Shown piece by piece: positions 20,596 to 62,570 of a stretch of 64,000 nt of DNA (position 1 is the first letter of the stretch; every line of letters starts with the position of its first letter). Below the pieces are notes generated by a model, which was not told the DNA's origin, searched no databases, and was given only the letters and a program-made list of their open reading frames with translations. The DNA is from an uncultured Phycisphaerae bacterium. GTDB lineage: Bacteria; Planctomycetota; Phycisphaerae; SM23-33. The stretch spans positions 12,663 through 76,662 of the forward strand of contig CAVXDC010000030.1 in NCBI GenBank assembly GCA_963760365.1. Reading direction: 5' to 3'. The position numbers and the translations under genes were made by a program.

Positions 20596-21001
20596 GAGCG
20601 CTGGTAATTATACCTACTGCGTTGCGCAGGTAAAATGATTCGGTTATGCACCTCAACAGGCCACTTGGCGGCTTGTGTTTAACCTCTCGCATAGAGGTTA
20701 AGTAATCATAGTAGTATGGATAGACCCCGTGGGTAACGTGAGTAGGGGGGAGCCCAAGTAGCACAACAAGATTTCGTAGGCGGAATTGCGGCGTAGCAGA
20801 CTTTTATCCAAGGGCGTGGATGGGTTGTTGCTGGTTTTCTGGAGCTTCGCAAAATAGCAAGGGCAGAGCGACCACACCGAACGACTCATCGGAAAAGACG
20901 CTAACGGGGGAGTCGGCTAATAAGGTTTTACCTGACAGGGAAAGACAACTTTCTTACGGGTTATCCACGGGGAGCTGTCGGTTTTTGTTTAGGGGTGCAG
21001 G
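20596..21001. other. candidate replication origin region (low-GC, DnaA-box-like motifs) immediately 3' of dnaA
   Basis: This is visibly the most AT-rich stretch of the window. It contains TTATCCACG (20961-20969), TTATCCAAG (20804-20812) facing CGTGGATGG (20815-20823), and TATGGATAG (20715-20723). There is also a perfect 9-bp palindrome, TTAACCTCT-cgcat-AGAGGTTAA (20679-20701). Confidence 0.45.
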
Positions 21002-22345
21002 TCAGGTGTTGTTGGCCAGTTCCCGGGCGATAAGGTCTAGAGTGGCTTGGAGATGGGGATCCTTCTGTCTTAGCAGGTTGATCGCGCCTTGGCGTGCATC
21101 ACCGTCGTGTGGTCCCTTCCGCCGAAGTACCCTCCGATCTCCTCTAGGCTGTGGCGGGTCAGTTCACGGGCCAGGTACATGCAGACTTGGCGGGGCAGGG
21201 CGATGGACCGGGTGCGCTTCCTGGACTGAAGGTCAGCCAGGCGGACGTTGAACCGCGCCGTGACGGCTTTGAGGATGTCCTCGATCGTGGTGCCCCGCCG
21301 GTCTGAGCCGAGCTTGGTGCCCAAGGCCTCTTCGGCCAGGGGGATGTCGAAGCTCCGGCTGGTGACCTGCGCCAGCATGGCCACCTTGGCGATGGCGCCC
21401 TCCAGCTCGCGGGAATTGGAGTCGATCACGCCGGCGATGAAGCAGATAACCTCCTCGGGCAGGTCGATGTTGCGCATGCGGGCCTTCTTGCGGACGATGG
21501 CCACGCGCGTCTCGTAGCAGGGGCGGTCGATCTGGGCGACCAGGCCCCAGTTGAACCGGCTGACGAGGCGCTCCTCCAGGTCGGGGATCTGTCCGGGGCC
21601 CCGGTCGCTGGAGAGGATGATCTGCCTTTGCGACTGGTAGAGCGTGTTGAAGGTGTGGAAGAATTCCTCCTGCGTCTGCTCGTGGGCGCTGAGGAACTGG
21701 ATGTCGTCGATGGCCAGCACGTCGGCGTGGCGGTAGCGGTAGCGGAACTCATGCAACTGCCCGCGCTCGACGGCCTCGATGAAGTGGTTGACGAACGTCT
21801 CGCAGCTCAGCACGCAGATGCGGGCCTGCGGGTCAGTGGCGGCGATCTTGCGGCAGGTGGCCTGGAGCAGGTGCGTCTTGCCCAGCCCCACGCTGCCGTG
21901 GATGATACAGGGGGTTGTACGTCTTGCCGGGCGTCTCGCTGACGGCCAGGCAGGCGGCGTGGGCCAGGCGGTTGCACGGGCCGGTGACGAAGGCCTCGAA
22001 GGTGTAGTCCTCTCCCAGCGGCAGGCCCTCGGCCGTCAGGGAGGATGGGGCCGAAGGCAAGGCCCCTTCTGGGGCGGGGGGTTCCTCCTGGACCTTGTCG
22101 GATGCGGTGAGAAAGCACACGCCGACCAGCCGCCCCGTGGCGGCCTGGGCGGCCTCGGTGAACAGGCGCGTGGCGTGGCGGCGGCAGTAGTCCCGCTCGC
22201 GGGGCCCCCCCACGTGGATCTCCAGCAGCCCATGCTCCAGAGAAATGGGCTCCAGCTCCGTGAACCAGGGACGAATGATGTTTCCGCCCGCGGCGATGAC
22301 CTGCTGCACAATCTTTTGCCACAAGGCCGGATCGACGGGAGGCAT
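21002..22345 (-). CDS. dnaA: chromosomal replication initiator DnaA (two frameshifts, near 21085 and 21905)
   Basis: The N-terminal domain is in ORF 21833-22345. The AAA+ core is [45 protein letters not shown]. The DNA-binding domain is [38 protein letters not shown]. The last ~27 codons continue in another frame to TGA at 21002. Confidence 0.9.
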
Positions 22346-22727
22346 CGACGTAGCCTTTCGACAAGCGCCGCAGGCGCGATGGGTTTACACGGTAACGGCC
22401 GTACTTCCCTTGGCGCAACTTTTAACCTTTAACCTCTTAACAAAGAAGACGACCAACGACGAATCGCAAAAACATTTGGCCATCCCTGGCGAAGTGAGCC
22501 ATCCCTCAGGCAGCCGCGCCTCCGACAACGACACCCGGGGAATCTAATGCCGTTTCCCCTGCATGTCAAAACAAAATCGCGCGATGCACCGTGGGCATGA
22601 TGGAATGCGCACGGCGGGAAGCTCTTGCGCACCTCGAAACACGCCGGTCAGTTCGTCCGCCGAGCCGCCGGGGCCAGCGGGCTGCCGTTTCCGCGACTGA
22701 ACTGCGCCGGCGACGTTGGCCCCCGCG

Positions 22728-25700
22728 TCATGCCGTAGCCGTTGGTCCCGCCGGAGGCGGGCTGACGGGGCGCAGCACAATGTTTTCCTCTCCCAGCAGA
22801 CCGACCAGTTCGTCGATCAGCCGCCGGTTAGGCCGGACGCACCACGGGCGGTCCAGCCGGACGATCGTGCGGACGTCGCCGCGGGTGGCGGGACGAATCT
22901 CCAAAAAAACCGGGCAGTCGCCGCGGCCTTCGCCGAGCGCGCCTCGGCTGAGTTCGGTGTCGAAGCCAGGCCGCCCGGAGCCCCTCGAGGGGCGGTGGCG
23001 GACCAGCACGTCGTGGAGGCGCTTCAGCAGCTCCGCAACGGCGGCGCCGGACGGCAGGCGGAGCAGTAGCGAGCCGGTCCGTTCCTCCACCGCGCGGTCC
23101 AGGGGAATGACCTCCTGGACGATCAGGCTGACCCGATCGCGCCGGCGGTCCACCGTGCCGACCAGGAAAACCATCTGATCCGCCCGCAGCAGCTCGGTGA
23201 CTTTCTCGTACACCTCAGCGAACACCACCGCCTCGCAGGAGCCGGTCAGGTCCTCGACGGTAAGCATGGCCATCTTCTTGCCGGCCGATCTTCCGTTTTT
23301 GGTGATCGTCGCGCGGACCGAGGCGAGCATGCAGCCCACGGCCACCTGGCCGGAGAACTCACCTAAACGCGTGAGGTTCGCTCCGGAGGGGCTGGCCAGG
23401 CTCTCCAGCTCCCTCCCATAGCGGACGAGCGGGTGGCTGGAAATGTAGAACCCCAGGGTCTCTTTTTCCGCGGCCAACAATTGCGCCTCCGACCAGGGCT
23501 CGGTTTGAGGGAAGCGCACGGGCGGGCGGGCGGAAGCATCGGAGACGTTGAGGTTGAAGAAGCTCATCTGGCCGCTGCGCCGGTCGGCGGCGGCGGTCTG
23601 GCCCAGCTCGATGGCCTGGTCCAGGGCGGCCATCATGGCGGCCCGGTGGGCGCCCAGGCTGTCGAACGCCCCGCATTTGATCAGCGCCTCGATGGTGGCG
23701 CGGTTGACGCAGCGCAGGTCCATGTGCTGGCAGAAGTGGAACAGGTCGGTGAATCGCCCGGCCTCCTTGCGGGCCGCGACGATGGCCTCCACCGCTCGGG
23801 GTCCGACGCCCTTGACAGCCGCCAGGCCGAAGCGGACGCGCTCACCGTCCACCGTGAAGTCGCTGTCGCAGGTGTTGATGTCCGGCGGGGCGACCTGGAT
23901 GCCCAGGCGCTGGGCCTCGGTCAGGTACTGCACCACCTTGTCGGTGTCGGAGCTTTCATAGGTCAGCGTGGCGGCGATGAATTCCCGCGGGTAGTGCACC
24001 TTAAAGTACTGCGCTCTGGTAGGCGATGATCGCGTAGCGGGTGGAGTGGGCCTTGTTGAAGCCGTAGCCAGCGAATTTCAGGATCAGCTCGAACAGCCGG
24101 TTGGCGTCCTCCAGGCGGATGCCGTTGGCCCGCGCGCCCTGGACGAACTTCGCCCGCTCGGCCGCGATGGTCGATTCCTTCTTCTTGCTGATGGCCTTGA
24201 TCAGCGTCAGCGCGGTGTTCAGCGGAAGCTGCCCCAGGCGGTTGAGCACGAGCATCACCTGCTCCTGGTAGACCATGATGCCGTAGGTCTCTCCCAGGAT
24301 GTCGTCCACGAGGGGGTGGAGCGACGGCACGGGGTCGGCGCTATTCTTGCGGGTGCAGTAGGCGGAGATCAGCTCCATGGGCCCGGGGCGGTACATGGCG
24401 TTGGCGGCGATCAGGTCTTCGATCCGCGTCGGCTGCATCTGGAGCAGGACGTTCCTCATCCCGTCGGACTCAAACTGGAACACCCCCTCGGTCTGCCCGC
24501 GGCGGAACAGCTCCAGCACAGCCTGGTCGTCCAGGGGCAGGGAATCGGGCTCCAGGTCCTTGCCCGTTCGGCTGCGCACCAGCTCCCGCGCCCGCTGGAG
24601 GATGGTCAGCGTCCGCAGGCCCAGGAAGTCCGTCTTCATCAGCCCGATCTTGTAGGCGCAGGTGTCGCCGTCCCACTGGGTGATGACCTCCTCGCTGTCG
24701 GCCTGGCGGCACAGCGGCACGATGTTCTCCAACGGCTCGTCGGCCACCACCACCCCCGCGGCGTGCACGCCGGCGTGACGGGCCAGGCCTTCCAGCTTCC
24801 GCCCGGCGTCCAGCAGTTCCCGCACGCGCGCGTCGCGGTCGTACATCGTCCGCAGGTCCGGCTCGGCCGCCAGGGCGCTATCCAGCGTGACGCCCAGGCC
24901 CTCCGGTACCTTCTTGGCGATGACGTCCACCTCGGACAGCGGCAGGCCCATCACGCGCCCCACGTCGCGGACCACCGCGCGGGCCTTGAGCGTGCCGAAC
25001 GTGATGATCTGGGCCACGTGGCCGTATTTCTCACGGACGTACTGGAGAACCTTGGCCCGGCCTTCCTGGCAGATGTCGATGTCGAAGTCGGGGTCCTCGT
25101 CCCGTTGCGGGTCGGTCCACCGCTCAAACAGCAGCCCGTAGCGGATGGGATCGACGTTGGAGATGTCCAGGCAGTAGCCCAGCAGCGTCGCGCAGCCGCT
25201 GCCGCGGGCCCCGATGGGAATGCCGTTGCCCCGGGCGAACTGCACGAAGTCGTGCACGATGAGCAGGTAGCTGCTGTAGCCCTTGGCCTCGATGACCTCC
25301 AGCTCCCGCTGCATCCGCTGCACGTATTCTTCCGGCGGTTTTTGGTCAAACTTGCGGTTCAAGGCCTCGAAGGCGATCTGGGCCAGGTAGTCCTTGGCCG
25401 CGACGCCGCCGGGCGTGTGGAAGACCGGCAGGTGCTTTCGGCCGAAGGTCATCTTGGTCTGGCACATCTCGGCGATTTTCAGCGTGTTGTCCGCCGCCCC
25501 CGGCCAGGCCGCCAGCGCGCGGCGCATCTCGGCGGGGCTCTTGAGATAAAGCTCCGGCGGATAGCTCAGCGCCCCGCCCTCAGCCAGCGTCTTGCCGGTG
25601 GAGATGCAGGTGAGGATCTCGTGGGCGGGCTTGTCCTGGCGGCGGAGGAAGTGCACGTCGTTGGTGCCCACCAGGCCGACGCCCAGCTCCCCGGCCAACT

Positions 25701-26283
25701 CGGCTAGCAAGGGGTTCACCTGGTCCTGCTCGGCCAGGCCCTGGTTCTGGACCTCGATGAAGAAGCGATCGGGCCCGAAGATGTCTTTATATTCCCCCCC
25801 GATCCGCCGGGCCGCGTTCTTCTGACCCGAAAGCAGCGCCGAGGGGATTTCCCCGCCCAGGCAGGCGGTCGTGCAGATCAGCCCCTCGTTCAGCTCCGAA
25901 AGCAACTGCCGGTCCACGCGCGGGCGGTAGTAGAAGCCCTCCAGGTAGGCCCGCGAGGATAGCTTCATCAGGTTCCGCCAGCCCGTGTCGCTGGCGGCCA
26001 GGAGCAGCAGGTGATACGCGGCCGTCTGGATGTTGCCCATCGAGCGGTCGCCCCGCGTGGTGGGCGAGATGTACGCCTCCATGCCCAGGATGGGCTTGAC
26101 GCCGCCGGCCTTGGCCGCCAGGTAGAAATCCACCGCCCCGAAGAGGTTCCCGTGGTCAGTCAGGGCCAGGCTGTCCATGCCCATCGCCCCGGCCGCGGCC
26201 ACCAGGTCCTCGATGCGGTTGCCCCCGTCCAACAGGGAGTAGTGCGAGTGCACGTGCAGGTGAGCGAATCCGTCCATGGCCAT
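22728..26283 (-). CDS. dnaE: DNA polymerase III alpha subunit (one frameshift at about 24005-24015)
   Basis: The PHP domain is FAHLHVHSHYSLLDG. The polymerase core is GRGSGCATLLGYCLDI, DIDIDICQ and FNKAHSTRYAIIAYQ, then KVHYPREFIAATLT and the OB-fold C-terminus in ORF 22728-23999. Together these give about 1180 aa. Confidence 0.92.
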
Positions 26284-26452
26284 CCGTCCGCGCGGGGTGA
26301 GCCTCGAAGCCGCGCGGCGACCACTATACCACGCGGCATCAGATCCGCAACGTCCCTTGTCCGGTCGGTTGGCTTGACATCCTTTTTGCAGCGTGTATGT
26401 TGGTGGGGTTGGTTTTCGGGCGGGGTTTCTCCCAGAGGAAGCGGAGCTCAAA

Positions 26453-27757
26453 ATGGCCAAGCGGAACGTGACGGTCGTGGGCCTTCAGTGGGGCGATGAG
26501 GGCAAGGGCAAGGTGGTGGATGCCCTGGCGGCCTTGTGCCGGTACGTCGTCCGCTTTTGCGGGGGCGCCAACGCCGGGCACACCGTCACCATCGGCGACG
26601 AAACGTACGCCATGCATCTGATCCCCTGCGGGGTCTTTAACCGCGGCGTGATGAACGTCATCGGCAACGGCGTGGTGTTCGAGCCGGCCGTGGCCATTCA
26701 GGAGATGGACGAGCTGGCCAAGCGAGGCGTCCAGGTCGGCCCGGACAACCTTCGCATCAGCGCCGCCGCCCACGTCGTGATGCCCTACCACCGCCGCCAG
26801 GATGCCCTCAGCGAGGCCGTGCTGGCCGGGGCCAAGATCGGCACGACCGCCCGGGGCATCGGACCCTGCTACGCCGACAAGGCCCTGCGTTCCACGGCCA
26901 TCCGCGTGGGCGATCTGACCGACGAAAAGCTCCTGCGCGAGAAGGTCGCGCGGATCGTGGAGATCAAGAACAAGCTCCTGGCCGCCTTGTACGGCGAGAA
27001 GCCGATGGACGCCGCGTCGATCGCCGACGAGCACGTCGCCTTCGGCCGGCGGCTCGCGCCGATGATCGGCAACACCGGCGCGATGCTTCGGCGGGCGGTC
27101 GCGGCCGGGGAGCGCATCCTGTTTGAGGGCGGGCAGGGCACGATGCTCGACGTCGATCACGGCACCTACCCGTTCGTCACCAGCTCCTCCGTCAGCGCCT
27201 GCGGCGTGTCGGCGGGGGCCGGTGTGCCGCCCTCGGCCGTCGGGCAGGTGGTGGGCGTGATCAAGGCCTACACCTCGCGCGTCGGCGCCGGGCCATTCCC
27301 CACCGAGCAGGACAACGACATCGGCAACACGATCCGCCAGCGCGGGAATGAGTATGGCACCACCACCGGTCGGCCCAGGCGGTGCGGCTGGTTCGACGCC
27401 TTTGCCGTCGGCTACGCCGCGGCCCTGTCGGGCGTGGGGGCCTTGGCGCTGTCGCTGCTGGACGTGCTCGGCGGGCTGGAGGAGCTGAAGATCTGCACCG
27501 GTTACCGCGTCAACGGGAAGCTGTTGGAGGAGTTCGACCCGATGGGTTTGGGCCGCGCCGAATGCATCTACGAGACGCTGCCCGGCTGGAAGGAAGACAT
27601 CAGCGGCTGCCGCACGGTGCGCGACCTGCCGCCGCAGGCGAGGGAGTACGTGCGGCGGATCGAGGAGCTGCTCGGCCGGCCGGTGGGATTCATCAGCGTC
27701 GGGTCGGAGCGGACCGCCTCCATCGTCCCCATCGACGCCATCGAGGGCCTGAGCTGA
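26453..27757 (+). CDS. purA: adenylosuccinate synthetase
   Basis: Intact. [57 protein letters not shown] and [12 protein letters not shown] are all present. Confidence 0.95.
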
Positions 27758-28529
27758 TGGCCGACATCTCCCCCCAGGCCGTCGCCGCCGCGCGGAAGGC
27801 GCTGGGCGTACCCCAGGAGCGCCTCCCGCGTTCGGTGGCCATCATCATGGACGGCAACGGGCGATGGGCCCGCGCCCGGGGCCTGCCGCGCGTGGCCGGG
27901 CACGAACAGGGCGCAAAGTCGTCCGCCGCATTGTCACCGAGGCCGCCCAGTTGGGGCTGGAGGCGCTGACGCTGTTCAGCTTCTCCATCGAGAACTGGCG
28001 AAGGCCCCCCCAGGAGATTAACGCGCTGATGGGCCTTTACGCCAAGTATCTGGAGAGTGAGCGGCCGGTCGTGATGGAACACAACATCCGCCTACGCCAC
28101 CTGGGCCGCCGCGAGGGCCTGCCGGCGGAGGTGCTGACGGAACTGGATGCCTCGACCTCCGCCTCCGCCCGCAACACGGGCATGTACTTGTGCCTGGCGT
28201 TGAACTACGGCGCCTGCGCGGAGATTACCGACGCGGTGAAGCGCATCACCCACCAGGTGGCCGAAGGCAAGCTCTCCGCCGAGGCGATTGACGAGGCCGT
28301 CATCTGCTCCGCCCTGGACACCGCCGGCGTGCCCGACCCCGACCTGATCATCCGCACCAGCGGCGAGAAACGGCTGAGCAACTTCCTGCTGTGGCAACTG
28401 TCCTATGCGGAGTTCTATATCACCGACGTCCTCTGGCCGGACTTCGACGAGCAGGAGTTCCGCAAGGCCATCCTCGACTACGCCGGCCGACACCGGCGCT
28501 TCGGGGGACTAAACGAAGCGACCGCCTGA
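27757..28529 (+). CDS. uppS: undecaprenyl-diphosphate synthase (one frameshift near 27915)
   Basis: [19 protein letters not shown], then (other frame) [14 protein letters not shown].., [23 protein letters not shown] and RRFGG. The ATG overlaps the purA stop (TGATG). Confidence 0.9.
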
Positions 28530-28591
28530 TATCGGGTTGTGGATTTGCGGTCTTCCCGATTGACCGATGGATCGGTCACCCCTGTGACCCC

Positions 28592-38131: not shown

Positions 38132-38136
38132 GGAAG

Positions 38137-51080: not shown

Positions 51081-51929
51081 ATGTCTCTTCTAGCGTGGTC
51101 ACTGATTCCTCCGGACGTGCAGCACGTCGCGGTGTTTTTGCTGCTGGGGGGCGTCTCGGCCATGCTGGTCAGTGCCGCCAAGGCGGGTTTCGGTGGGACG
51201 ATCGGCGTGCTGAGCTTTCCCATCATGGTGTACGCCTACAGCGGCAACGCGATGCTGGCCACGGGCACCACGCTGCCGCTGCTGATCGCCACCGACGTGG
51301 TGGCCCTGGTGAGTTGGTGGGGCAGGTGGAACCGCCGGACGGTGTGGATGATACTGCCGGGGGCGATCGCGGGCATCGCCGTCGGAGCCTTGGTGCTGTG
51401 GGGGTTGCGACGGATGGGCGACCCGGTGCAATCCGCCAAGGCCGGCAGCAGCGCCAACGCCGCGCTGATGCTGATGGTGGGCGTAATCTCCGTGGGCTTC
51501 GTGGTTCTCCAGACCGTCAACGCCCTTTTCTACCGGCCTGGGGCGTTCCGGCCCGTGCCCTGGCAGGGGACGGCCGTGGGGGCGGCCGCGGGCGTCACCA
51601 GCACCCTGGCCCACGCCGCAGGCCCCGTGGCCACCATGTACCTGCTGCCCCAGCAGATGCCCAAGGGCACCTACGTGGCCACCACGGTGCTGTTCTTTGC
51701 CGTCGTCAACTTGGTCAAGCTCATCCCCTACGTGGCGCTGGGGCTGATCAACACCACCACGCTGGGGGCGGGGGTCGTGCTGCTGCCGGCCGTCGTCCTG
51801 GGGGCGGTCCTGGGACTGAAGCTGCACGGCCGGGTCCCGCAGCGCCAGTTCACGGCCGTGGTCTACGTCCTGCTGGCCTTGACGGGGGCGCACATGATTT
51901 ATCAGGGACTGGGTGGGTTGCTGAGATAG
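51081..51929 (+). CDS. TauE/SafE (TSUP) family anion exporter
   Basis: Intact 282 aa with about 8 TM segments and the duplicated GxGGG-like motif (KAGFGGTIGVL, AAGVTSTLAHAAGP). Confidence 0.65.
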   Translation: MSLLAWSLIPPDVQHVAVFLLLGGVSAMLVSAAKAGFGGTIGVLSFPIMVYAYSGNAMLATGTTLPLLIATDVVALVSWWGRWNRRTVWMILPGAIAGIAVGALVLWGLRRMGDPVQSAKAGSSANAALMLMVGVISVGFVVLQTVNALFYRPGAFRPVPWQGTAVGAAAGVTSTLAHAAGPVATMYLLPQQMPKGTYVATTVLFFAVVNLVKLIPYVALGLINTTTLGAGVVLLPAVVLGAVLGLKLHGRVPQRQFTAVVYVLLALTGAHMIYQGLGGLLR

Positions 51930-51944
51930 CGGGATAGGAAAGAC

Positions 51945-52022
51945 AGGTTAGAGATGAGAGGTTAGAGGTTAAGAAAGGGGCTCTCTACGATAAAGGCCTT
52001 GCCAGACTCTAATCTCTAACCT
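51945..52022. repeat. AGGTTAG-type heptamer inverted repeat between convergent genes (TauE / ppdK)
   Basis: AGGTTAGAGATGAGAGGTTAGAGGTTAAG (51945-51973) faces ACTCTAATCTCTAACCT (52006-52022), whose reverse complement is AGGTTAGAGATTAGAGT. Confidence 0.8.
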
Positions 52023-52041
52023 TCCGCAGGAACCCTGGCGG

Positions 52042-54744
52042 TTACTTTCTGCGTTTCCTGGTGGGCTTGCGTGTGGTTTTTTTCGCGGCTCTCTTTGCCG
52101 CCTTTTTGGCCGGGTAGCGGATGGCGGCCTGGGCGGCGGCCAGGCGCGCGACCGGCACGCGGTAGGGGGAGCAGCTCACGTAGTCCAGGCCCACCTGATG
52201 GCAGAATTCCACGCTGGCGGGGTCCCCGCCGTGCTCGCCGCAGATGCCTAGCACAAGGTTCGGCCGGGTCTTTCGGCCCTTTTCCACGGCGATGCGGATC
52301 ATCTGTCCCACGCCGACGCGGTCCAGCGTCTGGAACGGGTCGTAATCGTAGATGCCCATCTCCACGTAATTCTTGAGGAACCGGCCGGCGTCGTCGCGGC
52401 TGAAGCCGCAGCCCATCTGCGTCAGGTCGTTGGTGCCGAAGCTGAAGAACTCCGCCTCGGTGGCGATCTCGTCGGCCGTCAGCGCGCCGCGCGGCACCTC
52501 GATCATCGTGCCGATCTGGTAGTGGAACGGCAGCTTCCGGACGCCTTTTTCGGCCTTGAGCTGCTCCAGAACCTCCAGGACCACCTTCTTCTGGTGGGCC
52601 AGCTCCTTCACGTTGCCCACCAGCGGGATCATGATCTTCGGGCTGGCAGCCCTTGACCGCCAGGGCGGCCTCGAAGACCGCGCGGGCCTGCATGGCGGTG
52701 ATCTCCGGATACGTGATGCCCAGCCGGCAGCCGCGCAGGCCCAGCATCGGGTTGAACTCGTGCAGCGACTCCACCTTGGCCTTGATCTTCTCCACCGGCA
52801 CGCCCATGGCCGTGGCCATCTCCTGCTGGCCCGGCGTCGTCGTGCGGTAGGAACTCGTGCAGCGGCGGGTCGAGGAAGCGGATGATGGCCGGCCGCCCGG
52901 CCAGGGCCTGGAAGATGCCGATGAAGTCCTGTCGCTGGAGCGGCAGCAGCTTTTCCAGCGCCTTGCGGCGGCCCTCGGCGTCCTCGGCCAGGATCATCTC
53001 GCGCATCGGGACGATGCGGTCGCCTTCGAAGAACATGTGCTCCGTGCGGCACAGGCCGATGCCCTCGGCCCCGAACCGCACCGCCACCTTGGCGTCGTGC
53101 GGCGTGTCGGCGTTGGCGCGGACGCCCAGGCGGCGGTACTTGTCGGCCAGCTTCATGATCACCCCGAACGGCCCAGTGAGCGCCGGTTCGACGGTGGGGA
53201 TTTTCCCGGCGTACACGGCCCCGATCGAGCCGTTGAGGCTGATCCAGTCGCCTTCTTTCAGCGTGGTGCCGCCGGCGGTGAGGGTCTTGGCTTTGTAGTC
53301 GATGACCGCGTCGCCCGCCCCGGCCACGCAGCACTTGCCCATGCCGCGGGCGACGACGGCCGCGTGGCTGGTCATGCCGCCCCGGCTGGTGAGGATGCCC
53401 TTGGCCACGTTCATGCCGCCGATGTCCTCGGGGCTGGTCTCGATGCGAACGAGGATGACGGCCCGGTTCATCTCCCCCCACCGCTCGGCGTCCTCGGCGC
53501 AGAAGACAATCTGACCCGTCGCCGCCCCGGGACTGGCGGGCAGGCCGGAGCAGATTTTCGGCGCCGCCTCTTCGGCCTTGGGATCGAAGGTGGGGTGCAG
53601 GAGTTGGTCGATCGCCTTGGGTTCCACGCGCATCACGGCCTGCTGCTCGCTGATGAGGCCTTCCTTGACCATGTCCACGGCGACCTTGACTGCCGCGGCG
53701 GCGGTCCGCTTGCCGTTGCGGGTCTGGAGCATGTAGAGCTTCCGCCGCTCGATGGTGAACTCGACGTCCTGCATGTCGCGGTAGTGCGTCTCGAGGATCC
53801 GGCGGATCTCCAGGAGCTGCCTGTAGGAGGTCCGGTCGCGCTGGGCCAGCTCGTCGATGGGCAGCGGTGTGCGGATGCCGGCTACGACGTCCTCGCCCTG
53901 GGCGTTCATCAGGAACTCTCCGTAGAACTTGTTCTCGCCGGTGGAAGGGTTGCGGGTGAAGGCCACGCCCGTGCCGCTGTCGTCGCCCAGATTGCCGAAA
54001 ACCATCGTCTGGACGTTGACGGCCGTGCCCAAAAGACCGCGGATGTCGTTGAGCTGGCGGTACTTGATCGCGCGGGGGTTGTTCCAGCTTCCGAGGACCG
54101 CGTCGATCGAGGCGTCCAGCTGCGCCCGGGCGTCCTGGGGAAAACTCTTGCCGGCGTGCTGGTATGACCTTCTCGTACGCGGCCACTACGTCCTTGAGGC
54201 CCTCGACGTCCAGTTCGGTGTCCAGCCTGGCCCCGCGGCGATCCTTGACGGTCTGGAGGGCGTGCTCGAAGTCGTCGTGCTCGATGCCCAGCACCACGTC
54301 GCCGAACATTTGCATGAAGCGGCGGTAGGCGTCCCAGGCGAACCGCTCGTTGCCGGTCAGGCGGGTGAGGGCTTGGAGGGTCTGATTGTTCAGCCCCAGG
54401 TTCAGCACGGTGTCCATCATGCCGGGCATGGAGGCGGCCGCCCCGCTGCGGACCGAGACCAGCAAAGGATTGGACCCGTGGCCGAAGGTCTTGCCGGTGA
54501 GCTTCTCCAGCCTCTGGATGTTGGCGGTGACTTCCTCCGCCAGGCCCCGCGGCCACTGGCGATTGAGCTTGTAGAACAGATCGCACGCCACGGTGGTGAT
54601 GGTGAAGCCTGGGGGGACGGGCAGGCCCAGGGAGCTCATCTCCGCGAGGTTAGCGCCCTTGCCTCCCAGCAAGGCCTTCATGGCAGCCTTGCCCTCGGCC
54701 TTGCCGCCGCCGAAGAAATACACGTACTTAGTCTTCTTGGCCAT
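52042..54744 (-). CDS. ppdK: pyruvate, phosphate dikinase with a basic C-terminal tail (heavily frameshifted as assembled)
   Basis: The N-terminus is [22 protein letters not shown]. The middle is [30 protein letters not shown] (phospho-His loop) and GLCRTEHMF. The C-terminus is [12 protein letters not shown] and [10 protein letters not shown]. These lie in ORFs 52042-54744, 52629-54032 and 52016-52819, with at least 4 frame changes. It ends [22 protein letters not shown]. Confidence 0.9.
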
Positions 54745-54984
54745 CGAATCTCTCTCCGTTAAGGCTGGTCGTAATCCTTTTCCGCGGAAAGCGCCGCCCC
54801 TGGGCGCTTGCGGGGTTGCTGCGGTGGGGTTGGTTCTGCGGAGATACGCTCATCCTTGGCCCCGCCAGGGGCAAAACGAGCCAGCAGTTTAGGTTTGCCC
54901 CCAAACCATGTCAACGTTTTTCGGCTCCACGGCGGGCGACGCGCTTGTTTTGGGCGTGGCGCAGGAGTTAGAATGGGCGTCAAG

Positions 54985-55090
54985 TTCGCTAGGGGCGCCC
55001 GTACGGGCTGAGAGTGACCCTTGGAACCTGATCAATGGAGCCTACCCCCCGGTTGGGGCGGGCGAGTTGCGTAGGGAAGCGGACGGCCGG
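54985..55090 (+). promoter_or_regulatory. TPP (THI-box) riboswitch
   Basis: AGGGGCGCCCGTACGGGCTGAGAGTGACCCTTGGAACCTGATC...GCGTAGGGAAG contains the conserved CTGAGA, ACCCTT-GAACCTGATC and GTAGGGA elements. It is upstream of thiC. Confidence 0.85.
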
Positions 55091-55111
55091 TGAAGGCAGA
55101 TTTCCTCGTTC

Positions 55112-55140
55112 AGGCCGCTCCCGCGCGGCCTTCTTTATTA
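55112..55140 (+). terminator. intrinsic terminator forming the riboswitch expression platform
   Basis: AGGCCGC-TCCCGC-GCGGCCT stem-loop followed by TCTTTATT, lying between the aptamer and the thiC start. Confidence 0.6.
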
Positions 55141-55198
55141 GCCGGTTACGGCAGGTTGAGCAGTTTTGCTGCCCACGGGATGCTAGCCAGGAGATGGG

Positions 55199-56497
<1,299 letters not shown>

Positions 56498-56616
56498 AGT
56501 TTCCGGGGCGAGGGGTAGACAGGTGACCGGTCGGTGGGGAAAATCCCGGCTTGTCGAATGGGGCAAGGTCAGTTAGTCCTCCGGCCCCGGCAGGCGTGGT
56601 TCGGCAAAGGCATAGC

Positions 56617-57321
56617 ATGACGAAACACAAGGAATCCTTCTGGGTCGGGGTGAAGAATGACGTGCGCAGCCGCCTGATCTCCGGGACGGTGGTGTTGGTG
56701 CCCCTGTTCATTACCCTCGCTATCCTGCGGTGGCTGTTCTTGTGGCTGTCGGGTTTCCTGTCTCCGGCAGTTGCCAAGCTGTTCACCGAGGGGAATCTGA
56801 AGGCCCGGTTGGGCCAGGCCGGTGCCGACTTCGTGCTCCGCTACGCCAACGTCATCGCACCGGTCGTCGCCTTGGTGCTGCTGGTGGTGCTTCTCTATGT
56901 CACGGGGGCGCTGACTCGGCGGGTGGTGGGCAAGAAGATCCTGGCCTTGGGCGAGGCCATCCTGCTTCGCATCCCGGTCGTCAAGCCCATCTATTCGGCG
57001 GCCAAACAGGTGGTGGAGGCTGTGTCCTTGCCGAACCGAGGCGCCTTCAAGGCGGTCGTCCTGGTGCACTTTCCGCATCCACGGATGTGGGCGGTGGGAT
57101 TCCTGACGGGGACGATCGTCGATCAGAACGGCAGGCGACTGTACAAGGTCTTCATCCCCACCACGCCCAACCCCACCACGGGGTTCTATGAGTTCGCCGA
57201 GCCGGAAGAACTGATGGTGACGGACATCCCTGTGGACATGGCCTTCAAGATGATCATTTCCGGCGGCATCATTGCCCCGGAGAAGTACAACGCTCGCCCC
57301 ATCGGCTTGGAGTATATGTAG
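56617..57321 (+). CDS. DUF502-family membrane protein
   Basis: Intact. There are two N-terminal TM helices, then IPVVKPIYSAAKQVVEAV, AVVLVHFPHP and FIPTTPNPTTGFYEF, typical of DUF502. The ORF is open from 56551. Confidence 0.6.
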   Translation: MTKHKESFWVGVKNDVRSRLISGTVVLVPLFITLAILRWLFLWLSGFLSPAVAKLFTEGNLKARLGQAGADFVLRYANVIAPVVALVLLVVLLYVTGALTRRVVGKKILALGEAILLRIPVVKPIYSAAKQVVEAVSLPNRGAFKAVVLVHFPHPRMWAVGFLTGTIVDQNGRRLYKVFIPTTPNPTTGFYEFAEPEELMVTDIPVDMAFKMIISGGIIAPEKYNARPIGLEYM

Positions 57322-57377
57322 CTCAACCGATGGTCGGTGGCTGAGGTGTTGGCGCTTTCGCAATCAGGAGCGAGACC

Positions 57378-58289
57378 ATGCGAAGGATGACACTGCTAGG
57401 TATGGTGTTTGGGTTGGCCGTTGCAGCGGGGAATTGCCTGGCCGGGCAGGAGGATAACTGGCTGGAAGCGGGGGTGCAGCTCGCCCAGGTTAGCGGTGAA
57501 CCAAACGCCGCCGCAGGCGCCGCGGCGACCGCCCCGCCGGGCGCGAGGTACGTGCCCTGGCAGGAGCGTCGCGGGCCGGCCTATCCGGGCGACTTCTGGC
57601 GCAGCTTCGGGCGTTATGGCAAGGAACTGCCTGAGACCTTGTGGGACGACACCAAGGTCACCTTCACCAGCCCAGTCAGTTGGGTCTGCTTCGGCCTGGC
57701 GGGGGCGGCGGGGATCGCCCTCAACGGTGGCAACGGCGACGAGCAGGTGGCCCACCACTTCACCAAGCACGGTTCGCAGCTCAACACCTTCTGGGACTCC
57801 GTCGGCGACGCCGGCGGCAACCCCTACACGCACTTTGCCGTCGCCGGTGCGGCCTACCTAGTGAGCCTGGCCAGGCAGGACACGCGGAACTACGAAGTCT
57901 CCGCGACGATGATGAATGCCCTGATCATCAACAGCCTGTTCACCGAGGTTCTCAAGGTGGCCGCTCGCACCGACAGTCCCAACGGGGAACACCTCGCCTG
58001 GCCCAGCGGGCACGCCTCCAGCAGCTTCTGCTTTGCGACGGTCGCCTACGAGGCCTACGGGCCGTGGGTGGGCGTGCCGCTGTTCGGGTTTGCCAGCTAC
58101 GTCGGCTACGAGCGGCTCGACGCCCGCAACCACGACTTTTCCGACGTCATCTCCGGTGCGCTGATCGGCGTCGCCATCGGCCACGCCGTCTCTAAAAACC
58201 ACCAGCCCAAGTTCCTGAGCATGGACGTCGTACCCTATGTCAACCCCGCCAACGGCGCCATGGGCATCGCCTTGAGCAAGACGTGGTGA
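57378..58289 (+). CDS. PAP2-family phosphatase with signal peptide
   Basis: Intact 303 aa. The signal-like N-terminus is MRRMTLLGMVFGLAVAAGNCLAG. The PAP2 motifs are KVAARTDSP, PSGHASS and ERLDARNHDFSDV. Confidence 0.65.
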   Translation: MRRMTLLGMVFGLAVAAGNCLAGQEDNWLEAGVQLAQVSGEPNAAAGAAATAPPGARYVPWQERRGPAYPGDFWRSFGRYGKELPETLWDDTKVTFTSPVSWVCFGLAGAAGIALNGGNGDEQVAHHFTKHGSQLNTFWDSVGDAGGNPYTHFAVAGAAYLVSLARQDTRNYEVSATMMNALIINSLFTEVLKVAARTDSPNGEHLAWPSGHASSSFCFATVAYEAYGPWVGVPLFGFASYVGYERLDARNHDFSDVISGALIGVAIGHAVSKNHQPKFLSMDVVPYVNPANGAMGIALSKTW

Positions 58290-58520
58290 CGACGGCGGCC
58301 CAAAAGTCAAGCCGCAGGCGGATGTTAGGGAAGAACTGGGCAGGGTAGGCCCGAAGCGTCTGGGAATTCCACAAGATCTCGATACGTTCATTCCGCTCAG
58401 AAACTGCAAGGAAATTAGATGTAACCACTCCTCGTTGTGGGTCACCTAGTCATAAGGCCCAGCGGAGGGCATAAAATTAACAGATGGGGGCAACCCCATC
58501 CACGATGAGGAGAATCGACC

Positions 58521-59642
58521 ATGAAGCGATTAGGCCTACGAGCCATAGCCCTTGCGGGCGTCTTGGTCGTCTTTGTGGCGGTGCAGGATTGTCGCGCGGC
58601 GGGTGGGTTTGTGACGGCCCAGCCGGCGGAGAAGCCCGCCGCGATCGCGGCCATCGAGCAGGCAGCCGGCCCCTCCGAGGTGATCTCGGCCTTCACCAAG
58701 GCCTTGGCGGGTGGAGAAGATAAAGCGGCGGTTTACTCGGCGTTCGTCCATCGCATGGTTCAGCTCGGCCTGCCCCAGGCCACCTACGATCAGGCCCAGA
58801 CGGCCGTCGGACTCGACCCGTCCGACAAAGTCTCCTGGGCCGTGATCGCCTTCACCCAGGCCAGTACCGGCAAGATGGAAGAGGCTCTGTCCTCCCTGGC
58901 CAAGGCATCGCCGCAGGCCGATGACGACCCCTTCGTCGTCAAGACGGCCGGGCAATTGCTGGCCTGGTATGACAGCACTCCAGACCAGGCTGTCACGGAC
59001 GAGACCCGCAAGGCCGTCGAAGATGTCCGCAAGCGTTTGGCAGATAACGGACTGTTCATGGAGACCTACCAGACGACGATGGAGGCCTTCCAGCTCTATC
59101 GCCTGACCGGTGCCGAAAAGCCCACGGCCCCGTCCGGTCAGGCACCAACTCCGGCGGAGCCCAATGCCCAATCTGTGGCCGTTGAAAACCGGACCATCAT
59201 CATCTACCCACAGCCGAACGTGGTGTACGGATATTCCTATCCGTTGTTCTTCCCATCCCCTCGGTATTACAGACCCTTCATCAGGTGGCCACGGTTCCCA
59301 CCGGTATCTTTCCCGGGGGATCATCGACACCGCGGGTCTGACCGGGATGACCATCGCGACCGCGACGCGGATCGCCCTCGCGACGGCGGCAAGGGTACGG
59401 ATCGTCCATCGCCGGGTGGCCGACGTGTTGGCCGGAGCGCGTCCGTCCCCGGCGTTAAGGTGGATTCTCTGCTTGCGTCCGACCGGCAGGATAGAACGAC
59501 CGTCGAGGATTCTTCAGACCGCCGGGTTCCAGTTCCGTTTGCGCCTGCCAGAGTGTTGATGCGCGACGGGGATGGCAGGGACTTCCGCTCCATCCCGTGG
59601 GTCCACGTGGATCGAGCCCCTGACGGCCGCAGGTCCCGGTAA
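58521..59642 (+). CDS. secreted hypothetical protein with helical N-domain and R/D/P-rich low-complexity tail
   Basis: Intact 373-aa ORF. The signal-like N-terminus is MKRLGLRAIALAGVLVVFVAV. The C-terminus is a DRDDHRDRDADRPRD-type low-complexity region. I recognise no homolog. Coding status is inferred from ORF length and start context. Confidence 0.4.
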   Translation: MKRLGLRAIALAGVLVVFVAVQDCRAAGGFVTAQPAEKPAAIAAIEQAAGPSEVISAFTKALAGGEDKAAVYSAFVHRMVQLGLPQATYDQAQTAVGLDPSDKVSWAVIAFTQASTGKMEEALSSLAKASPQADDDPFVVKTAGQLLAWYDSTPDQAVTDETRKAVEDVRKRLADNGLFMETYQTTMEAFQLYRLTGAEKPTAPSGQAPTPAEPNAQSVAVENRTIIIYPQPNVVYGYSYPLFFPSPRYYRPFIRWPRFPPVSFPGDHRHRGSDRDDHRDRDADRPRDGGKGTDRPSPGGRRVGRSASVPGVKVDSLLASDRQDRTTVEDSSDRRVPVPFAPARVLMRDGDGRDFRSIPWVHVDRAPDGRRSR

Positions 59643-59865
59643 CACGCGGTCCCTGACGTTAAGGTAGGGTGTGCAGTTTCGCTGCACACGCAGCTTCCAT
59701 GTCGTCTCCTAACCCGTGCGCAGCAGAGCAGCGCACCCCATCAGCGACCTGACCGTGAGGGGAACTTGCCTTCCTCGGGGAGGAAGATTTTATGAATCCT
59801 CGGTATTGTTTAAACCCAACCGGACACCGTTGGCACTTTATGGCAGAGGCCGATCGGACCTGACA

Positions 59866-61287
59866 ATGCAAGGGCTTGGACTGCTGGTGAGGGCTGCGCA
59901 GGCGGGCGACCTGGACGCCTACAGTCAAATCGTCATGAGGTTCCAGGACATGGGCTATGCGTGTGCCTACGCCGTCCTGGGCGACTTTCACCTGGCTCAG
60001 GACGTCACGCAGGAGGCCTTCATTGAGGCCTACCAGAACTTGGCGAAGCTGCGGGACGTCGAGGCCTTCCCAGGCTGGTTTAGGAAGGTCGTTCGCTACA
60101 GGTGCAGCCGAGTCAGGCGGGCAAGGCGTCTGCCGTGGGTGCCGCTGGAGTCGGGCTTGGGCGTGGCATCGAGCGGCCCGGGGCCGAGCCAGGTGGCCGA
60201 GGAGCGCGAAATAAAAGACAAGGTGATCGAGGCGATCCGCTCCCTGCCGCAACCGCAGCGTGAGGTCACCGCCTTGTTCTACATCGATGGGTACTCACAA
60301 CAAGAGATCGCCGCGTTCCTGGATGTCCCGGTGAATACCGTCAAGAGCCGCCTGCGTGCTTCCAGGAATCGGCTGAAGGAAAGGATGATTCGAATGCTTG
60401 GGCAGGTCTTCAACGAACACAAGCTTCCCGATGATTTTGCGGGACGCGTGATCCAAGGTGTCCCTGTGCTGGCGTGGGGCAAGAGCGGGAACACCACGTA
60501 CATCGCGGCCGTCTCAGCGGCCTTGGCTGTCACAGACCGGCCTTTCGACTACGACTCCCTGATGGTCTACAGCGGCTTGGCGTTTCGCCTTCGCTATGTC
60601 CGCCGCCTGGACGGGCGTGAGTGGAGCGGCGTCGGACCGGTGGGGCAGTTCCCCGAAGAAGCCGAGGCCGTCAGAAAGGCGACGGGGTGTGAGGGTCTCT
60701 GGACCAAGGACATGCAGGAGAAGAAGCGGCGCACGGTGGCCGCCCTGGATGCCGGCCTCTGCCCCACGGCCTACATCGAGGGCGACACGGGCGTCATCTA
60801 CGGCTACGACGAGGGGGGGGATACCGTCCTGGTTCGCTGCTATGACCTGGGCGAGGGGTTTCACAAGATGCCCTTCGAGAAGGTCACCAGCGGGGGCGGC
60901 CCGTTCTTCCTGGAGCCCAAGGGCGATCCCCTGCCGCCGCGCGACGCGTTGATGCAGGGACTCAAGTTGGGCGTCATGAACTGGCACCGCGGACGTATGC
61001 CTGGCGAACAGTGGCAACCGTGGCGAGGCAAGGGGGCGTGGGAGTACTGCTTTGGCGATTCGGCCTACCAGGCCTGGGTCGAGGACCTCAGGACCATCGC
61101 CAAGCTGAACGCCGACGAGCGGGCTGGCCTTTATTCGAACCATCGTTGGACGGCTTATCACCTGTATGACGCTCGCCAGGCCGCGGCGCGGTTCCTGACC
61201 GGTCATGCCGACGTGCTCGGCAAGGGAGCGAGGGTGAATCTGGAGACGGCAGCCGGCCTGTACGACAAGGCCGGGAGAACGATTTAG
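59866..61287 (+). CDS. ECF-type sigma-70 factor fused to a ~300-aa C-terminal domain of unknown function
   Basis: Sigma region 2 is DLDAYSQIVMRFQDMGYACAYAVLGDFHLAQDVTQEAFIEAYQNL..FPGWFRKVV. Region 4 is LPQPQREVTALFYIDGYSQQEIAAFLDVPVNTVKSRLRASRNRL. A soluble-looking extension with no TM helix follows. Coding-like sequence continues in frame past the TAG at 61285 to TAA at 61456-61458. Confidence 0.75.
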   Translation: MQGLGLLVRAAQAGDLDAYSQIVMRFQDMGYACAYAVLGDFHLAQDVTQEAFIEAYQNLAKLRDVEAFPGWFRKVVRYRCSRVRRARRLPWVPLESGLGVASSGPGPSQVAEEREIKDKVIEAIRSLPQPQREVTALFYIDGYSQQEIAAFLDVPVNTVKSRLRASRNRLKERMIRMLGQVFNEHKLPDDFAGRVIQGVPVLAWGKSGNTTYIAAVSAALAVTDRPFDYDSLMVYSGLAFRLRYVRRLDGREWSGVGPVGQFPEEAEAVRKATGCEGLWTKDMQEKKRRTVAALDAGLCPTAYIEGDTGVIYGYDEGGDTVLVRCYDLGEGFHKMPFEKVTSGGGPFFLEPKGDPLPPRDALMQGLKLGVMNWHRGRMPGEQWQPWRGKGAWEYCFGDSAYQAWVEDLRTIAKLNADERAGLYSNHRWTAYHLYDARQAAARFLTGHADVLGKGARVNLETAAGLYDKAGRTI

Positions 61288-61487
61288 GAGCTGCGGGATA
61301 GCCGACGGGCGTTCTATGATCCCAAACCCGTCGGTGTCGATGTGCCCGAATGGAGCGACCAGATCCGCCAGCTCGAAATCCGCACGCTGGTTGAAGTCCA
61401 CAAGATGGACGGCGCCGCCGTCGCCGAGATTGAAAAGGCCTTGTCCGTTGCCGAATAACCCACGGCTTGCAAGCCGAGGTCCGTTTG

Positions 61488-62423
61488 TCAGGCGATGCCG
61501 TCCGGGTCGGGCGACTCACCATTGGGCCGGTGTTTCCAGCGGCGGTGGACCCACAGGTACTGCTGGGGGGCGTCGCGGACGATCTGCTCCAAGACGGAGG
61601 TGTATTCCTGCGTGATCCAGACCAGCGGGTCGGGCTTATCGGCCCATTCGTGCGGGTGGATGATCCGCTGCACGCCCATCTCGAAGTGGAACGCCTCGTC
61701 CAGCCGCCGCCCGTAGCCCACGACGATCGGGGCGCCGAACTGCATGGCCATCAGGGCGATGGACTTGTAGGTGCTGGCCGGCCGGCCGAAGAAGTCCACG
61801 AACAGCCCCTTGCGCCCCGCGTCCTGGTCGGCGATGAAGCTCAGCGTCCCGCATCCGGCCAGCACGTCTTCCATCGTGGCCGTCGCGCCCCGCTTGTACA
61901 GGATGCTCTGGCCGGTCCGCTCGCGGAAACCCATGACGTACTCGTTGATGAACGGATTGTCCAGCGGCCGGGCGACCGTCACCGACGGAAACCCCAGCGT
62001 GGCCATCGTGTAGCCCACCAGCTCAAAGCTCCCGTAGTGCCCGGTCACCAGGATCACGCCGCTGCGCTGCTCCAGCAGCAGCCGCAAGGCCTCGGAAAGA
62101 TTGGCCAACTGTACGTGCCGCCTCCAGAGCAGTGGTGTGATCAGCCGCGGGGTCAGCAGCACCTCCAGCCCCAGGAACACCAGGTGCTTCAGCGACTCCC
62201 GCGCGACGTGATGAATCGTTTCCTCGCTCCAGGCGGGGAAGCTGCGGCGGAGGTGCTCGACGGCGAAGCGACGGTGGCGGCGGTCCAGGCGGTAGATGAG
62301 CCAGCCGATCAGGTCCGCCGTGCGGTAGTTGGCCGCGGGGGAAAACATGTGCACGAACATCGCAAACAGCCGCAGCGCGACGTACGTCAGGTAGTCCAAC
62401 AACTTGTTTCTTGGTCGAGCCAT
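61488..62423 (-). CDS. lysophospholipid/lipid A lauroyl-type acyltransferase (LpxL/HtrB family)
   Basis: Intact 311 aa. It has an N-terminal membrane anchor, the acyltransferase HX4-type motif TGHYGSFE, then FIADQDAG and FFGRPA. Confidence 0.7.
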   Translation of the reverse strand: MARPRNKLLDYLTYVALRLFAMFVHMFSPAANYRTADLIGWLIYRLDRRHRRFAVEHLRRSFPAWSEETIHHVARESLKHLVFLGLEVLLTPRLITPLLWRRHVQLANLSEALRLLLEQRSGVILVTGHYGSFELVGYTMATLGFPSVTVARPLDNPFINEYVMGFRERTGQSILYKRGATATMEDVLAGCGTLSFIADQDAGRKGLFVDFFGRPASTYKSIALMAMQFGAPIVVGYGRRLDEAFHFEMGVQRIIHPHEWADKPDPLVWITQEYTSVLEQIVRDAPQQYLWVHRRWKHRPNGESPDPDGIA

Positions 62424-62430
62424 TGGAGAA

Positions 62431-62570
62431 AGGTTAGAGGTGAGAGGTGAGAGTTAACGGCCGCGCAGGCGGCATCGTGGCATCGGTGTCGGTTCTGTGC
62501 GTGCCAGGAATTCCTACTTTTCGCCAACGACGTTGCCGCACTCTAACCACTAACCTCTAACCTCTAACCT
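62431..62570. repeat. AGGTTAG-type heptamer inverted repeat between proS and the acyltransferase gene
   Basis: AGGTTAGAGGTGAGAGGTGAGAGTTAAC (62431-62458) faces CTCTAACCACTAACCTCTAACCTCTAACCT (62541-62570). The spacer is about 80 nt. The right arm supplies the last 7 codons and the TAG stop of proS. Confidence 0.85.

Follow-up and report, generated by a model that had tools for sequence, protein, structure and literature searches.

We have examined a 64,000-nucleotide (nt) stretch of DNA from an uncultured Phycisphaerae bacterium (the window; C30:12663-76662 of the source assembly, G000) and ask what the short heptameric repeats are that recur within it. An earlier note had described arrays of AGGTTAG and AGGTTAA at four intergenic loci of the window, and had grouped them as a dispersed palindromic family of the repetitive extragenic palindrome/bacterial interspersed mosaic element (REP/BIME) type. 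Loci 3 and 4 are genuine members of a family of hairpins with inverted arrays of an AGGTKAG unit, and loci 1 and 2 are chance look-alikes. On balance, we favor an interpretation in which G000 has six gene-less copies, loci 3 and 4 among them, of a hairpin element that is specific to one family of the Phycisphaerae and whose full form carries a gene for an S23p protein (PF05635). The source assembly comprises 2.43 Mb in 55 contigs, with 64% G+C and 71% completeness. The genome set contains 61 genomes, 37 from the GTDB family of G000 and 24 from other families of the order or class, and includes two congeners of G000 (G001 and G002) in which the coding flanks are 78-84% identical.

The AGGTKAG hairpin family and its S23p cassettes

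Locus 3 is situated between the convergent genes TauE (51081-51929, + strand) and ppdK (- strand, ending at 52042), and locus 4 has proS on one side and a lipid A acyltransferase gene (61488-62423, - strand, PF03279) on the other. The location of locus 4 is that given in the earlier note, but the strand of the acyltransferase gene had to be corrected, and because it is on the - strand like proS, the junction is a co-directional one running from proS to the acyltransferase gene. The proposal that both loci consist of hairpin-forming inverted heptamer arms is borne out, with loops of 36 and 91 nt; the predicted RNA fold of locus 4 has an energy of -58 kcal/mol (z = -4.3), and that of locus 3 has -28.6/-27.3 kcal/mol (z ~ -2.1). 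The locus 4 element does supply the end of proS: read on the - strand, its right arm accounts for the six C-terminal residues (RLEVRG) and for the TAG stop codon (62550-62552). A scan of the window against Rfam at the gathering threshold returned tRNA only.

The genome-wide pattern search that had been suggested, with (AGGTKAG)3 and up to three mismatches, yields exactly six sites in the assembly (Table 1), and all six are inverted pairs of the form [AGGTKAG]n...[CTMACCT]n. Their loops are 22-91 nt long and mutually unrelated, and none encloses a gene. With a 21-nt pattern and at most one mismatch, arrays are found in 17 of the 37 genomes of the GTDB family of G000 and in none of the 24 genomes from other families, and a reversed-pattern control gives no matches in all 61 genomes. 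Chance similarity thus does not account for loci 3 and 4, and a dispersed, lineage-specific palindromic family built from a 7-nt unit, as first proposed, has further copies both in the assembly and in its relatives.

The number of AGGTKAG copies per genome ranges from 0 to about 80. G006 has 236 perfect 21-mers, and 20 of the 27 sites sampled there are inverted pairs. Arm order is constant, with the G-rich arm 5' on either strand, and arms are 2-9 units long with a mode of four (36 of 74 arms); the two arms are equal in only 16 of 37 elements and unequal in the other 21. Loops of gene-less elements span 20-139 nt. Within G006 these loops are mostly unrelated to each other, and what they have in common is limited to short motifs (GAGTGCAGACGCTC and a palindromic module of 28 nt) together with nested elements of other families. 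We also note that two regions of G006, L178 (C11) and L187 (C31), are mosaic clusters in which several array families occupy one intergenic region in a BIME-like manner. A whole hairpin made of GTCCAT-type 8-9-mers directly adjoins a solo AGGTKAG right arm there, and AGTCCCT/AGTGCCT arrays come next.

In relatives most loops are short, but some are 390-450 nt long and contain an open reading frame (ORF), and the two such ORFs that were scanned both correspond to PF05635 (E = 1e-26 to 1e-28), with an additional weak match to bAvd (PF22296). PF05635 is the "23S rRNA intervening-sequence protein" (S23p), a four-helix bundle first found inside 23S rRNA intervening sequences (IVS). The full-length element is thus a cassette of about 450-510 bp, whose loop contains a single S23p gene of about 125 codons. 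Gene-bearing cassettes with the same arms are present in G001, G006, G009, G010, G018, G027, G031 (as a pseudogene), and G036, and the ORF has the same direction as the downstream host gene in nine of nine cassettes. There is one gene-bearing copy in a genome that has the cassette, as against up to about 80 gene-less ones.

A search with the protein of this clade identified nine genomes with one copy each at 64-100% identity, all other matches being at most 39% identical. The clade gene is present in eight of the 17 array-bearing genomes and in one of the 20 array-less genomes of the family (Fisher p = 0.005), and the sole array-less exception, G021, has a protein only 64% identical and variant arms (AGGTRAA). 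In a maximum-likelihood tree, the seven AGGTKAG-armed proteins all group in a single clade with a long branch (support 100/99), and related proteins outside this clade bear related heptamers. The S23p gene and the arm type are thus inherited together. As a separate observation on G021, a segment of about 70 nt, the array included, is directly duplicated in the left flank of its variant-armed cassette (C19, L241 ~1330-1520), with two occurrences of the stretch …ggtcatcgtggggytcctgaacagcAGGTGAAAGGTAAGAGGTTAAAGG….

The association of PF05635 genes with inverted heptamers extends well beyond the AGGTKAG clade. PF05635 genes occur in 53 of 61 genomes of the class, and of 71 planctomycete examples inspected (from Phycisphaerae, Isosphaeraceae, Thermoguttaceae, and Pirellulales), inverted repeats enclose 52 (in 47 of them with a period of seven), as against none of 123 control windows. 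The arm units differ gene by gene and include AGGGACT, AGGCAAW, TAGGCTG, AGTGGCY, and GAGTTST, among others. G000 itself has two PF05635 genes, identified by a search with a profile hidden Markov model (HMM), and these have arms of other types, AATGYYM and RATTGCC (Table 1); gene-less hairpins of both types are also present in this assembly.

Comparison of the three congeners provides a view of how these elements change at orthologous sites. At the junction just upstream of proS, the S23p cassette is complete in G001, an AGGTKAG hairpin with a loop of 22 nt occupies the site in G002, and an array of 8-mers of GTYRAC type is present in G000. The first 14 nt of the G002 loop match the interior of the G001 cassette (positions 15-29) at 12 of 14 positions, and the matched G001 stretch is antisense to the part of the S23p gene that encodes the C-terminus. 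At least one of the gene-less hairpins, that at the proS-upstream site of G002, has therefore arisen by internal deletion from a gene-bearing cassette at this position. At locus 4, the 91-nt loop of G000 corresponds in G002 to a loop of 3 nt (AGT-GCG-ACT), next to which the right arm has decayed, and in G001 the site is occupied by an 8-mer array. Locus 3 is common to G000 and G002 and is absent in G001, the C35 copy is common to all three congeners, the C40 copy is shared by two, and a copy at C99 of G002 is filled where its C54 counterpart in G000 is empty. Copies are thus gained, lost, or replaced at orthologous junctions within a single genus. The filled and empty site pairs did not give exact insertion boundaries, the intergenic DNA being too diverged, and the proS neighbors retrieved from genome contigs, at 62% identity or less, are too distant for synteny.

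The 8-mer arrays at these sites have palindromic cores (GTTAAC/GTCAAC/GTTGAC; CAGTCAAC CGGTTAAC TGGTTAAC ...) and occupy the two proS-adjacent junctions where sister species hold AGGTKAG hairpins; such an array is also nested in an AGGTKAG loop of G006 (C36, L192). The C35 copy, with orthologues in all three congeners, directly follows the rRNA operon, in the order 23S gene, 5S gene, canonical terminator with a GC stem and T tract, and AGGTKAG hairpin. In G000, an extra 80 nt with two small hairpins is present between this terminator and the element.

Constraint on the arms and competing explanations

The arms and the loops of orthologous copies have diverged quite differently, and the arms themselves are not uniform. 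Differences at the six fixed positions of the unit amount to 24 in 276 comparisons (8.7%), against 26 in 46 (56.5%) at position five, and loop identity is about 53%. A logo of 317 units from 37 elements (A312 G316 G315 T299 K(T162/G150) A310 G310) gives the same picture, and while its near-invariance at six positions is partly a matter of ascertainment through the way that units were selected, the orthologue comparison is unaffected by this. At position five C is found in only two of the 317 units, and A occurs in several, mostly in G002. The base at this position is uncorrelated across the two arms of the stem (60 matched and 71 mismatched, or 46% matched) and between neighboring units (116 the same and 118 different), and there is no compensatory pairing at position five. 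Because the fixed positions are constant and position five is uncompensated, the arms are conserved as sequence rather than kept mutually complementary. We note from the sequence that a stop codon results from each of the bases seen at position five (TAG with T, TGA with G, and TAA with A) and that C would make none. As the unit length of seven is coprime to three and each common unit contains a stop, three or more units close all three reading frames. Either stop codons or a keto base could be what is selected at position five.

The elements were expected to lie at intergenic sites near gene ends, and this is what is seen. None of 37 elements is intragenic; 25 lie at co-directional junctions, six at convergent and three at divergent ones, with three unclassified where the flank is cut off, although these context statistics rest on a crude GC-frame gene caller, which was checked against Pfam on the window genes and placed the acyltransferase gene correctly on the - strand. 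In the 25 co-directional cases the median distance is 5 nt to the upstream stop codon and 40 nt to the downstream start, and the stop is no more than 10 nt away or inside the arm in 17 of the 25, lying inside the arm in 11. Element-derived tails such as ...RLEVRG* thus account for the ends of proS and of many other genes, which is of some consequence for annotation.

This placement is also what would be expected if the elements were host-domesticated RNA stem-loops located after stop codons, serving as RNase III sites, as blocks to 3' exonucleases, or as insulators of translation or transcription, and selected by the host regardless of S23p. Such a role would agree with the conservation of copies at orthologous junctions in three species with constrained arms, with the median of 5 nt past the upstream stop and the closure of all frames, and with the persistence of arrays in nine of 17 genomes that lack the clade gene. 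That another array family fills the same two proS junctions in sister species gives the impression that a hairpin 'slot' is kept, and heptamer arrays of Xanthomonas are mostly transcribed at loci that are unusually stable (PMC4692102). We nevertheless consider this explanation rather unlikely. What is constrained is the sequence and not the pairing, and a purely structural role does not predict an uncompensated position five. Nor is it clear why one heptamer should be held across 17 genomes when other hairpins could serve, and the variation in copy number from 0 to about 80 per genome, the empty state of locus 3 and other sites in a sister species, and the presence of one copy beyond the rRNA operon terminator are all difficult to reconcile with it.

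Another explanation, also raised in the earlier note, is that the hairpins are intrinsic transcription terminators, possibly bidirectional ones. They are stable and lie downstream of genes, in some cases between convergent genes, but neither arm is followed by a T tract, the loops measure 20-139 nt, and a scan with a terminator consensus was negative. Moreover, 25 of the 34 classified copies are within co-directional pairs with the next start at a median of 40 nt, and at the rRNA operon the hairpin comes after a canonical terminator that already lies behind the 5S gene. A terminator function is therefore very improbable.

The earlier note had favored elements of the REP/BIME type mobilized by a REP-associated tyrosine (RAYT, Y1) transposase, and the dispersed, palindromic, and extragenic character of the family, its proximity to gene 3' ends, and the mosaic clusters of G006 are all reminiscent of such elements. 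However, the search for the Y1 transposase shows PF01797 in 34 of the 37 relatives irrespective of arrays, with array-free genomes having 5-13 copies, and G000, G001, and G002 have one weak PF01797 match each, located within large ORFs (E = 1e-5 to 1e-8). The elements, whose arms are tandem arrays that vary in length, lack both a conserved REP core and a GTAG-type 5' motif, and the gene that goes with the family is PF05635. We find mobilization by RAYT hardly tenable.

A quite different origin can be envisaged in which a templated polymerase adds the arms unit by unit to the 3' ends of a DNA break, in the manner of telomerase, with the loop as captured filler. This would give the fixed arm order, in which the G-rich strand runs 5' to 3' towards the center on both strands, the unequal numbers of units, the unrelated loops, and a single near-random binary position that is independent between units, which resembles variable-repeat telomeres. 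There is also a connection to reverse transcription, in that S23p is related to Avd, a partner of the reverse transcriptases of diversity-generating retroelements (the PF22296 match). Against this, no reverse transcriptase or template is found in or near the cassettes, and a free keto position can also explain the alternation of G and T. Orthologous copies keep the number of units and in part the pattern at position five, which indicates that arrays are inherited and not rewritten, and we regard templated addition as extremely unlikely.

Finally, ordinary simple-sequence or low-complexity repeats, unrelated to each other and formed by slippage in place, would readily vary between two and nine units and give unequal arms as seen in 21 of 37 elements, but deserve almost no credence given an inverted pair in fixed arm order throughout, 17 genomes with no control matches, arrays co-inherited with one protein clade, and neighboring units whose 116 : 118 ratio at position five argues against recent slippage as the main source.

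The interpretation that we favor, of gene-less copies of a cassette with an S23p gene, also faces several observations that weigh against it. No S23p gene of the AGGTKAG clade was found in G000 by tblastn and HMM searches of an assembly that is 71% complete, and nine of the 17 array-bearing genomes do not have one, so that the hairpins persist without their proposed partner. The six G000 loops contain no remnant of a cassette interior, their match scores being at the null median, and the loops are mutually unrelated, unlike those of copy-and-paste families of MITEs (miniature inverted-repeat transposable elements). The cassette holds no enzyme, the flanks of the elements have no target-site duplication, and complementarity of the flanks is at chance (5.19 versus 4.94 +/- 0.24 of 12), so that insertion into a host hairpin is not indicated either. 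About half of the units have a G.A or U.C mismatch in the stem, which weakens a simple model based on RNase III or double-stranded RNA. Lastly, the 23S genes of G002, G010, and G016 have no heptamer-armed insert, the extra length in G010 being a run of masked Ns.

Look-alikes and neighboring features in the window

The earlier note counted four family loci in the window, and of these loci 3 and 4 stand, whereas loci 1 and 2 do not have proper inverted arrays (Table 1). In the assembly as a whole, two-unit matches with up to two mismatches outside the six elements number 16, compared with about 38 expected from a hand calculation based on base composition, and single heptamers are not enriched (AGGTTAA, 107 versus 91 expected; AGGTTAG, 67 versus 163 expected). 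As two-unit matches are at chance level, loci 1 and 2 are outside the family, and the suggestion that two copies flank dnaA falls with them. An Rfam search at loci 1 and 2 (E <= 1) gave nothing except a sub-threshold match to AsdA.

Table 1. Positions of the features discussed (window coordinates unless a contig is named; contigs are those of G000 unless another genome is named)
Feature	Position	Description
Locus 3 element	51945-52022	One of the six G000 sites
Locus 3 left arm, G-rich	51945..51972	AGGTTAG AGATGAG AGGTTAG AGGTTAA, 4 units; starts 15 nt past TauE stop (51927-51929)
Locus 3 loop	51973..52008	36 nt, ends in ACT; unrelated to other loops or to the cassette interior
Locus 3 right arm, C-rich	52009..52022	CTAATCT CTAACCT, 2 units, one decayed; ends 19 nt before ppdK stop (52042-52044, - strand)
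Locus 4 element	62431-62570	One of the six G000 sites
Locus 4 left arm, G-rich	62431..62451	AGGTTAG AGGTGAG AGGTGAG; 7 nt from acyltransferase start codon (62421-62423, - strand)
Locus 4 loop	62452..62542	91 nt, AGT...ACT at its borders
Locus 4 right arm, C-rich	62543..62570	CTAACCA CTAACCT CTAACCT CTAACCT, 4 units
Copy on C35	C35:2038-2116	One of the six G000 sites; post-rRNA-operon hairpin
Copy on C38	C38:25688-25758	One of the six G000 sites
Copy on C40	C40:17800-17883	One of the six G000 sites
Copy on C47	C47:40182-40249	One of the six G000 sites
Post-rRNA-operon hairpin, G002	G002:C7:3504-3581	
Post-rRNA-operon hairpin, G001	G001:C233:736-813	
8-mer array, G000	C30:~77010-77060	Outside the window, just upstream of proS
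8-mer array, G001	G001:C175:8861-8982	
PF05635 gene with AATGYYM arms	C24:11785-12286	
PF05635 gene with RATTGCC arms	C2:~18222-18690	Gene-bearing counterpart of the RATTGCC hairpins
RATTGCC hairpin (second window family)	16349..16433	Inverted arrays (ATTGCCA x4 ... GGCAATY), gene-less; 96-nt fold, z = -4.5
RATTGCC copy	C7:26338-26422	
RATTGCC copy	C30:88810-88924	
Locus 1	20679..20701	Isolated 9-10-bp hairpin TTAACCTCT/AGAGGTTAA; C-rich arm first (opposite order); ~1.3 units per arm
Locus 2	22422..22441	Two TTAACCT (AGGTTAA) units just upstream of the dnaA start; no partner arm

The window contains a second hairpin family with RATTGCC arms, which has further copies in G000. A - strand gene encoding a SIS-domain protein probably starts at 16338-16340, and the window copy lies upstream of this start by 9 nt. 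The RATTGCC unit contains no stop codons, and this accounts for a false long ORF (15795-16799) that runs through the hairpin in the ORF list; repeat families without stop codons can thus create spurious long ORFs and mislead annotation.

Two of the neighboring genes have irregular reading frames. The dnaA gene is on the - strand, from 21070 to about 22418, and matches to the DnaA ATPase and helix-turn-helix domains are confined to ORF 21070-21891, which starts at position 43 of the ATPase profile; the ORF upstream of it (21807-22418) is in another frame and has no Pfam match. This region may contain a frameshift or encode a divergent N-terminus. ppdK (52042-54744, - strand) is split across two frames, with PPDK_N and PEP-utilizers_C in a 900-residue frame and the mobile domain and adjoining parts in the 52629-54032 frame, which indicates frameshifts or assembly errors.

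Known heptamer systems and a proposed protein-repeat partnership

ORF-bearing 23S IVS have been known since the 1990s, and to our knowledge neither these nor dispersed heptamer arrays have an accepted function or origin. Rehm et al. (2015) described heptameric simple sequence repeat (SSR) arrays of GGGAATC in Xanthomonas and GGGGAYT in Nostoc, mostly of four units, with 70-75 convergent inverted pairs per genome (PMC4692102). These are intergenic, mainly between aligned ORFs and rarely between divergent ones, lie within 50 bp of a stop codon or overlap it, are nearer to the upstream ORF, and are conserved in sister species and transcribed; they were read as G-quadruplex formers and no gene family was named (PMC4692102). 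Dispersed heptamer arrays of cyanobacteria (Calothrix; the short tandemly repeated repetitive sequences, STRRs) were known long before 2015, as cited in that paper (PMC4692102), and elements with heptanucleotide repeats were described in Geobacter by Aklujkar et al. (2009; PMC2700814). The AGGTKAG arrays closely resemble those of Xanthomonas and Nostoc. Their 7-nt unit is likewise G-rich, with one variable position in an otherwise conserved core, and they form convergent inverted pairs, mostly of four units, that are intergenic, lie at or over the upstream stop, and are conserved in sister species. They differ in being from another phylum, in being tied to a PF05635 clade, and in having only GG runs rather than runs of three or four G, and the G-quadruplex interpretation is thus not transferable to them; such runs belong to the particular units and not to the architecture.

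The 23S IVS offer a second point of comparison. These elements are known from Coxiella burnetii (in helix 45) and Leptospira, and in Coxiella a 28-bp stem is cut by RNase III and an S23p ORF is present (Warrier et al. 2016; PMC4990558). The Coxiella IVS has tandem heptamers in variable number, encodes no enzyme for mobility, and has been proposed to be of mobile origin (PMC4990558), and the Xanthomonas S23p protein is a homopentameric toroid of four-helix bundles, as cited in the same paper. The cassettes described here share with the IVS a length of about 430-500 nt, terminal inverted repeats giving a stem of about 28 bp, a PF05635 ORF in the loop, and the heptamers themselves. In contrast to the IVS, AGGTKAG elements are located between protein genes or after the rRNA operon and not inside 23S rRNA, most copies have no ORF, the whole stem consists of heptamers, and cleavage of the stem by RNase III is a prediction.

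Similarities to other dispersed elements are more limited. As with REP/BIME sequences, the hairpins are short dispersed extragenic palindromes near gene 3' ends that form mosaics with other repeats, but they have no fixed core palindrome of 20-40 nt and no RAYT link, and their loops are long and unrelated. As with MITEs (Correia, ERIC, RUP), inverted repeats are shared between one gene-bearing copy per genome and many gene-less copies, with at least one internal deletion evident, but there is no transposase and no target-site duplication, and the internal sequences are unrelated. The kind of repeat itself is therefore already known, and what this lineage adds is the evidence that ties gene-less arrays to a specific S23p clade. 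Our literature search found no paper linking such arrays to PF05635 outside rRNA IVS.

The nature of the arms suggests how a hairpin element with an S23p gene could operate. As the arms seem to be kept for their sequence and not for pairing alone, they may be the target of a factor that recognizes this sequence, for which the cognate S23p pentamer is the most plausible candidate, and the element would act as an extruded DNA hairpin or as an RNA hairpin at transcribed gene junctions. In its RNA form it could be an IVS-like stem amenable to cleavage by RNase III. The gene-less copies would be non-autonomous relatives, able to persist and perhaps to spread whether or not the S23p gene is present. 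Because three or more units close all frames, insertions at or over stop codons would be tolerated, as at proS, which ends inside an arm. Movement of the element is something that we infer and have not seen.

A broader proposal can be put forward, although tentatively and as something that we do not think probable. PF05635 proteins and inverted heptamer arrays could together constitute one minimal genetic system, in which each protein clade reads its own heptamer, with six fixed bases and a free keto position, about one subunit of the pentamer per unit, and a modal array of four. The arrays would then be cis sites that keep and spread the cassette and its far commoner gene-less derivatives at junctions that are transcribed, and the SSRs of Xanthomonas and Nostoc, the cyanobacterial STRRs, the 23S IVS, and the planctomycete hairpins would all be its products, representing a new class of mobile or self-preserving element without a known recombinase.

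The lineage described here constitutes a clean natural experiment, with one heptamer type, one S23p clade, an orthologous site in three states, and constrained arms with one free position. A repeat of unknown function thus becomes a testable hypothesis about a protein and the repeat that it may recognize.

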